Shown: positions 1 through 611 of the stretch, in pieces
Position numbering within the stretch: position 1 is the stretch's first letter
Layout of the letters: each line of letters opens with the position of its first letter
Assembly: GCF_003334355.1 (NCBI RefSeq)
Contig: NZ_QOWP01000105.1
Strand: one strand, 5' to 3'
DNA length: 611 nt
Origin: Escherichia coli
Lineage (GTDB): Bacteria > Pseudomonadota > Gammaproteobacteria > Enterobacterales > Enterobacteriaceae
Program-made: the position numbers and the translations under genes
Notes under the pieces: generated by a model
What the model saw: the letters and a program-made list of their open reading frames with translations, nothing else
Database searches by the model: none
Told to the model about the DNA's origin: nothing

Positions 1-465
1 TTTGTCATGCAGCTCCACCGATTTTGAGAACGACAGCGACTTCCGTCCCAGCCGTGCCAGGTGCTGCCTCAGATTCAGGTTATGCCGCTCAATTCGCTGC
101 GTATATCGCTTGCTGATTACGTGCAGCTTTCCCTTCAGGCGGGATTCATACAGCGGCCAGCCATCCGTCATCCATATCACCACGTCAAAGGGTGACAGCA
201 GGCTCATAAGACGCCCCAGCGTCGCCATAGTGCGTTCACCGAATACGTGCGCAACAACCGTCTTCCGGAGCCTGTCATACGCGTAAAACAGCCAGCGCTG
301 GCGCGATTTAGCCCCGACATAGCCCCACTGTTCGTCCATTTCCGCGCAGACGATGACGTCACTGCCCGGCTGTATGCGCGAGGTTACCGACTGCGGCCTG
401 AGTTTTTTAAGTGACGTAAAATCGTGTTGAGGCCAATGCCCATAATGCGGGCGGTTGCCCGGCAT
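1..465 (-). CDS. insB: InsB, catalytic part of the IS1 transposase, expressed as the InsAB' fusion; 3'-partial (about 12 codons plus stop lie beyond position 1); frame is -1 relative to insA
   Basis: My own translation from the ATG at 465..463 down to position 1 gives 155 sense codons with no stop: [155 protein letters not shown]. This matches IS1 InsB as I recall it. It is absent from the supplied ORF track, presumably because there is no in-window stop codon. Confidence 0.9.
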
Positions 466-611
466 CCAACGCCATTCATGGCCATATCAATGATTTTCTG
501 GTGCGTACCGGGTTGAGAAGCGGTGTAAGTGAACTGCAGTTGCCATGTTTTACGGCAGTGAGAGCAGAGATAGCGCTGATGTCCGGCAGTGCTTTTGCCG
601 TTACGCACCAC
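384..611 (-). CDS. insA: InsA, IS1 transposition repressor / N-terminal DNA-binding part of the transposase; 5'-partial (N-terminal ~16 codons lie beyond position 611); TAA stop at 384..386
   Basis: Minus-strand translation gives [75 protein letters not shown], matching the C-terminal 75 residues of IS1 InsA (91 aa) as I recall it. The 'M' in the ORF track is the internal GTG (Val) codon at 609..611, not a true start. The CSHC zinc-finger half (555..566) and the helix-turn-helix-like segment (roughly 408..494) are present. Confidence 0.92.
402..408 (-). promoter_or_regulatory. Programmed -1 ribosomal frameshift slippery heptamer A-AAA-AAC (A6C), joining insA to insB to make the InsAB' transposase
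   Basis: The minus strand reads ...CAC TTA AAA AAC TCA GGC... in the insA frame (H L K N S G). A -1 slip on A6C gives AAA AAA CTC AGG CCG (K K L R P), which is exactly the insB-frame peptide [10 protein letters not shown]. The insA stop TAA (384..386) lies 15 nt downstream of the heptamer. The IS1 A6C frameshift is established in the literature. Confidence 0.88.

Follow-up and report, generated by a model that had tools for sequence, protein, structure and literature searches.

The window, i.e. the whole 611-bp stretch of DNA that was analysed, is almost certainly an internal segment of an IS1A-type copy of the insertion sequence IS1, corresponding in reverse complement to positions 104-714 of the 768-bp element, and encodes nothing else. 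It is an already known and ordinary element, and no sequence is left over. IS1 was among the first insertion sequences to be described, and its organisation of insA, an A6C frameshift site and insB' is textbook knowledge. The initial annotation had placed the entire window inside IS1, and this interpretation is supported: identity, domains, frameshift architecture and the pattern of substitutions all fit IS1. Two refinements are to be made: the ends of the element are absent from the window, and the copy is a rare allele of the IS1A type. As a known mobile-element repeat, the window can be masked and dropped from lists of candidate new systems; beyond such housekeeping the result is of no importance.

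A megablast search of the window against all 5,426 complete RefSeq genomes of E. coli returned matches in 9,517 records, 9,054 of which cover at least 80% of the window. Nine E. coli records are 100% identical over bases 1-611, and the identity is at least 99% in 6,095. The matches are spread over 4,970 of the 5,426 genomes, the median number of places per genome being 11, and the gene annotation at every match listed is IS1 or IS1A family transposase. Among the PLSDB plasmids, at least 5,000 records match, all of them with at least 80% coverage of the window and at least 95% identity; the genera represented are Escherichia, Klebsiella, Salmonella, Enterobacter, Citrobacter, Shigella and others. 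Over the whole segment, similarity to reference IS1 amounts to 611 of 611 bases against annotated copies and 607 of 611 against the IS1A of K-12. The nucleotide comparison that the initial annotation had proposed as its check has thus been carried out, and it yields near-identical IS1 matches across the full window in both E. coli genomes and plasmids.

As the reference for placement, we used the annotated IS1A of K-12 MG1655 (NC_000913 19796-20563, a mobile_genetic_element feature with insA1 and insB1), whose architecture is identical to that of the window. In a gap-free alignment with four substitutions, the minus strand of the window corresponds to IS1 positions 104-714 of 768; together with the full-length 100% matches, this alignment puts the window wholly inside IS1, on the minus strand. 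The first 103 and the last 54 bases of the element are missing, and with them the inverted repeats, the promoter associated with the left inverted repeat (IRL), insA codons 1-16 and the final 12 codons of insAB'. The joined coding sequence in the 100% identical RefSeq copies, which carries the label 'programmed frameshift', extends beyond the window by 48 nt at its start and by 39 nt at its end. The features that fall inside the window are collected in Table 1.

Table 1. Features of the 611-bp window and its substitutions relative to the IS1A of K-12, in window positions.
Feature	Position	Strand	Basis or effect
insA codons 17-91 and TAA stop (386-384)	384..611	-	translation; NF033558, NF050000; position relative to the annotated CDS in copy L001 and in K-12 IS1A
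AAAAAAC (A6C) slippery heptamer, -1 shift from insA to insB'	402..408	-	single occurrence; invariant in 8 isoforms; role from PMC12428005
insB' frame, -1 relative to insA, to residue 220 of 232 of InsAB'	1..408	-	open frame; NF033558, 141.6 bits
ATG of the classical free-standing 'insB' ORF (167 aa) in K-12	463..465	-	K-12 insB1 coordinates mapped onto the window
Second Cys-x2-Cys pair of the InsA zinc ribbon (InsAB' Cys32, Cys35)	555..566	-	Pfam Zn_ribbon_InsA, PF03811
Helix-turn-helix of InsA/InsAB' (Pfam HTH_Tnp_IS1)	402..533	-	PF12759, E 3e-28, fragment residues 27-70
DDE catalytic domain of IS1 transposase (Pfam DDE_Tnp_IS1)	1..357	-	PF03400, E 2.5e-70, model positions 1-119 of 131
Candidate catalytic D109	336-334	-	motif context EMDEQW
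Candidate catalytic D166	165-163	-	motif context MTDGW
Candidate catalytic E191	90-88	-	motif context RIERHN
Substitution relative to K-12 IS1A	588		synonymous in insA
Substitution relative to K-12 IS1A	453		synonymous in insA
Substitution relative to K-12 IS1A	437		V75I in InsA
Substitution relative to K-12 IS1A	271		S to R in InsB'

The total length of the source is only 611 bases, both of its ends fall inside IS1, and the ends of the element are unseen. The window could accordingly come from a truncated or inactive remnant lacking one or both ends rather than from a complete mobile element. Incomplete and damaged copies do occur, since partial IS1 matches are present in E. coli records (H98 and H99, covering 61% and 40% of the window, respectively) and decayed copies with internal stops exist (e.g. 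L006, described below). A remnant is nevertheless an improbable origin for the window. Neither frame is interrupted within the window, the slippery site is perfect, and the window is 100% identical to a complete copy (L001), which lies within grxA, is bounded by the IS1 inverted repeats and carries a 9-bp target duplication, CGCGTTCAT, on both sides. A stand-alone source of 611 bases, ending within IS1 on both sides, also resembles what would be expected of a contig formed by a collapsed multi-copy repeat in a short-read assembly. The identical copies elsewhere (L001 and L002) have the terminal inverted repeats of IS1 (about 23-30 bp), GGTGATGCTGCCAACTTACTGAT and GGTAATGACTCCAACTTATTGAT; for the copy in the window, these repeats, the insertion site and any target-site duplication, typically 9 bp for IS1, fall outside the 611-base source.

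Two of the other copies have features of their own. The IS1 copy at L002:1397-2165 (NZ_CP025913.1) is identical to the window across the shared part, and it has nine substitutions relative to K-12 IS1A clustered at IS1 positions 64-103, just beyond the window. It is without a 9-bp target duplication, its flanks being TATCGCTTAGTT and AACCATTCCTTA, and it adjoins a truncated type I restriction S-subunit gene. These observations suggest a mosaic copy together with an IS1-mediated rearrangement. The copy at L006:253-950, on the chromosome of E. coli Seattle 1946, is a decayed IS1 with 91% identity, annotated as a pseudogene in RefSeq, and has two in-frame stops in insB' (one Q to stop, one W to stop).

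The reading frames of the window are those of IS1. The insA product is the InsA repressor, which is also the N-terminal DNA-binding part of the transposase, and its translation in the window ends with ...LKNSGRSR*. The slippery heptamer precedes the stop codon of insA by 16 nt, and on the minus strand the -1 frame stays open from upstream of this site to base 1. With insA extending from 611 to 384 and the -1 frame from the slip site to base 1, the insA / frameshift / insB architecture covers every base, as the initial annotation had proposed. The insB' frame would be expressed solely within the InsAB' fusion, of which it forms the C-terminal part; the frameshifting itself is known from the literature. 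The start codon of the classical insB ORF sits inside insA, in the -1 frame, and this free-standing ORF gives no separate protein (PMC12428005).

On the conceptually frameshifted product, the Pfam domains follow the order Zn_ribbon_InsA, HTH_Tnp_IS1 and DDE_Tnp_IS1. The zinc ribbon is matched only in its C-terminal half (PF03811 model positions 16-35 of 35, E 4.3e-9) because insA codons 1-16, which contain the first Cys pair, fall outside the window. The InsA part also matches the NCBIfam models NF033558 (IS1 family transposase) and NF050000 (IS1/IS1595 zinc-binding domain), the latter with 35.5 bits against a cut-off of 28. The InsB' part matches NF033558 at profile positions 79-199, above the cut-off of 100 bits (Table 1). 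Judging from their motif contexts, D109, D166 and E191 are likely to be the catalytic triad.

Published work describes IS1 as a 768-bp element that is bounded by ~30-bp inverted repeats and has a weak promoter overlapping IRL (PMC12428005; PMC12903888). Its insA encodes a repressor, and a rare -1 frameshift at A6C gives InsAB', with a zinc finger, a helix-turn-helix and a DDE motif; when the need for the frameshift is removed, transposition rises about 1000-fold (PMC12428005; PMC12903888). The length of InsAB' is given as 232 residues (PMC12428005). On this basis, the weak promoter in the left inverted repeat would produce a single transcript, and normal translation would yield InsA, composed of the zinc ribbon and the helix-turn-helix. 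According to the literature, InsA would bind the inverted repeats and repress the promoter. In a small proportion of translation events, the ribosome would slip by -1 on AAAAAAC, shortly ahead of the insA stop, and continue in the insB' frame. The resulting InsAB' would combine the same DNA-binding domains with the DDE catalytic domain, and would be the protein that performs transposition, as reported in the literature. What our analysis adds to this scheme is the identity of the sequence, both reading frames and the purifying selection on them, the slippery site and the three domains; repression, the frameshift frequency and catalysis come from the literature.

As an independent check on the reading frames, the window was aligned with seven isoforms, namely K-12 IS1A, IS1B, IS1F and four others that are 87-96% identical. 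Relative to the window, IS1B is ~99%, IS1F ~91.5% and a plasmid isoform 87% identical, and the nucleotide divergence of 1-13% falls mostly at third codon positions. Within the window, all of them agree in length and in the InsA and InsB' frames. The alignment of eight isoforms (87-100% identical) contains 113 variable sites and no indels. Before the slippery site, 42 sites vary, and 31 of these are third positions of insA codons (chi-square p ~2e-7); past the insA stop, 69 sites vary, and 51 of them are third positions of codons in the -1 frame (chi-square p ~7e-12). The AAAAAAC heptamer is unchanged in all eight isoforms. The third-position excess in both frames, combined with the invariant A6C, implies selection on exactly the frames and the switch point that are predicted for IS1. 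Purifying selection thus acts on both the insA frame and the insB' frame.

The region just downstream of A6C might additionally contain a structured RNA, such as a frameshift-stimulating pseudoknot or hairpin, that would constitute a functional feature of its own. PMC12428005 mentions that a pseudoknot may lie downstream of the site and might increase frameshifting, and the 25 nt past the slip site are nearly invariant, with two variable sites among the eight isoforms. Such near-invariance is expected anyway, however, because two reading frames overlap there. Furthermore, the 86 nt from the slip site (window 330-415, minus strand) have a minimum free energy of -22.6 kcal/mol, compared with -21.95 +/- 3.22 kcal/mol for shuffled sequences (z = -0.20), and 69 of the 200 shuffles fold as well as or better than this RNA. 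An Rfam scan of both strands with permissive filters gave no match at E <= 1, for a stimulator RNA or otherwise. The variation downstream of A6C is too low for covariation testing. Taken together, these results lend no support to the pseudoknot, and a separate RNA feature at this position is unlikely; the identification as IS1 is unaffected.

An extra gene on the plus strand, antisense to insB', is a further alternative. The candidates are a 94-aa ORF at 2-286 and a 55-aa ORF at 247-414, both of which are free of internal stops in the window and also in copies of the IS1A/IS1B type. In isoforms that are 87-92% identical, however, the plus-strand ORF 2-286 is interrupted by one or two internal stops, and for the same nucleotide differences the antisense 94-aa product is altered at more residues than InsB' is (e.g. 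15 versus 8). No promoter-like site was found on either strand of the window; scans for promoter-like and terminator-like sequences gave 0 hits each, where chance alone would give 0.5 and 0.6. In the 1980s, mutational studies of the IS1 ORFs reportedly found that only insA and insB were required. We regard an additional antisense gene as extremely unlikely, and IS1 coding sequence remains the sole content of the window. In line with the initial annotation, which had seen neither a repeat array nor an additional gene, no base lies outside the sense coding frames and the Rfam, promoter and terminator scans are empty. Its view that the window supports no novel system likewise holds, since the domains, frames and substitution pattern are those of IS1 and nothing is unexplained.

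Some smaller ORFs were also considered. The other plus-strand ORFs of at least 44 aa, at 61-195 and 247-414, and the third-frame ORF at 362-204 (minus strand) were likewise rejected as genes, as they contain one or two internal stops in divergent isoforms. Two 30-aa plus-strand ORFs, at 24-116 and 424-516, remain open across the isoforms; as both are short and lie entirely within coding sequence that is itself constrained, their openness carries no weight.

The common form closest to the window is the IS1A carried by plasmids and chromosomes of enterobacteria (RefSeq 'IS1-like element IS1A family transposase', e.g. WP_103215986.1 on NZ_CP029181.1), with which it shares 610 of 611 bases as well as the frames, the slippery site and the domains. 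The sole difference is at window position 437, where a G to A change on the sense strand converts GTT to ATT (codon 437-435). The common IS1A has Val at residue 75, which is replaced by Ile in the window; the residue belongs to the helix-turn-helix common to InsA and InsAB'. Ile is found at this residue in none of the seven other isoforms compared. The copy in the window is therefore a rare single-nucleotide variant of the IS1A type. Of the differences from K-12 IS1A (Table 1), the one at position 271 reflects a peculiarity of the K-12 copy, because the residue in the window is that of all other isoforms compared and K-12 IS1A is the odd one out.

The E. coli records that contain the window sequence unchanged (H1-H9) tend to be rich in IS1: eight of the nine carry from 31 to at least 40 IS1 places and the ninth carries 10, compared with the genome median of 11. 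It is conceivable that V75I alters end binding or repression and so contributes to IS1 expansion, but we consider this weakly founded and very unlikely, and the change is conservative. The high counts may instead reflect a confounded association, in that IS1-rich genomes hold more variants.

In the copy at L009:301-911 (plasmid p2016C04-116-3), which is 96% identical to the window, the first half of InsB' is IS1F-like (RIRRTVV, LATLERLLSLLS) and the second half is IS1A-like (PFDVVIW). This mosaic InsB' is consistent with recombination between isoforms.
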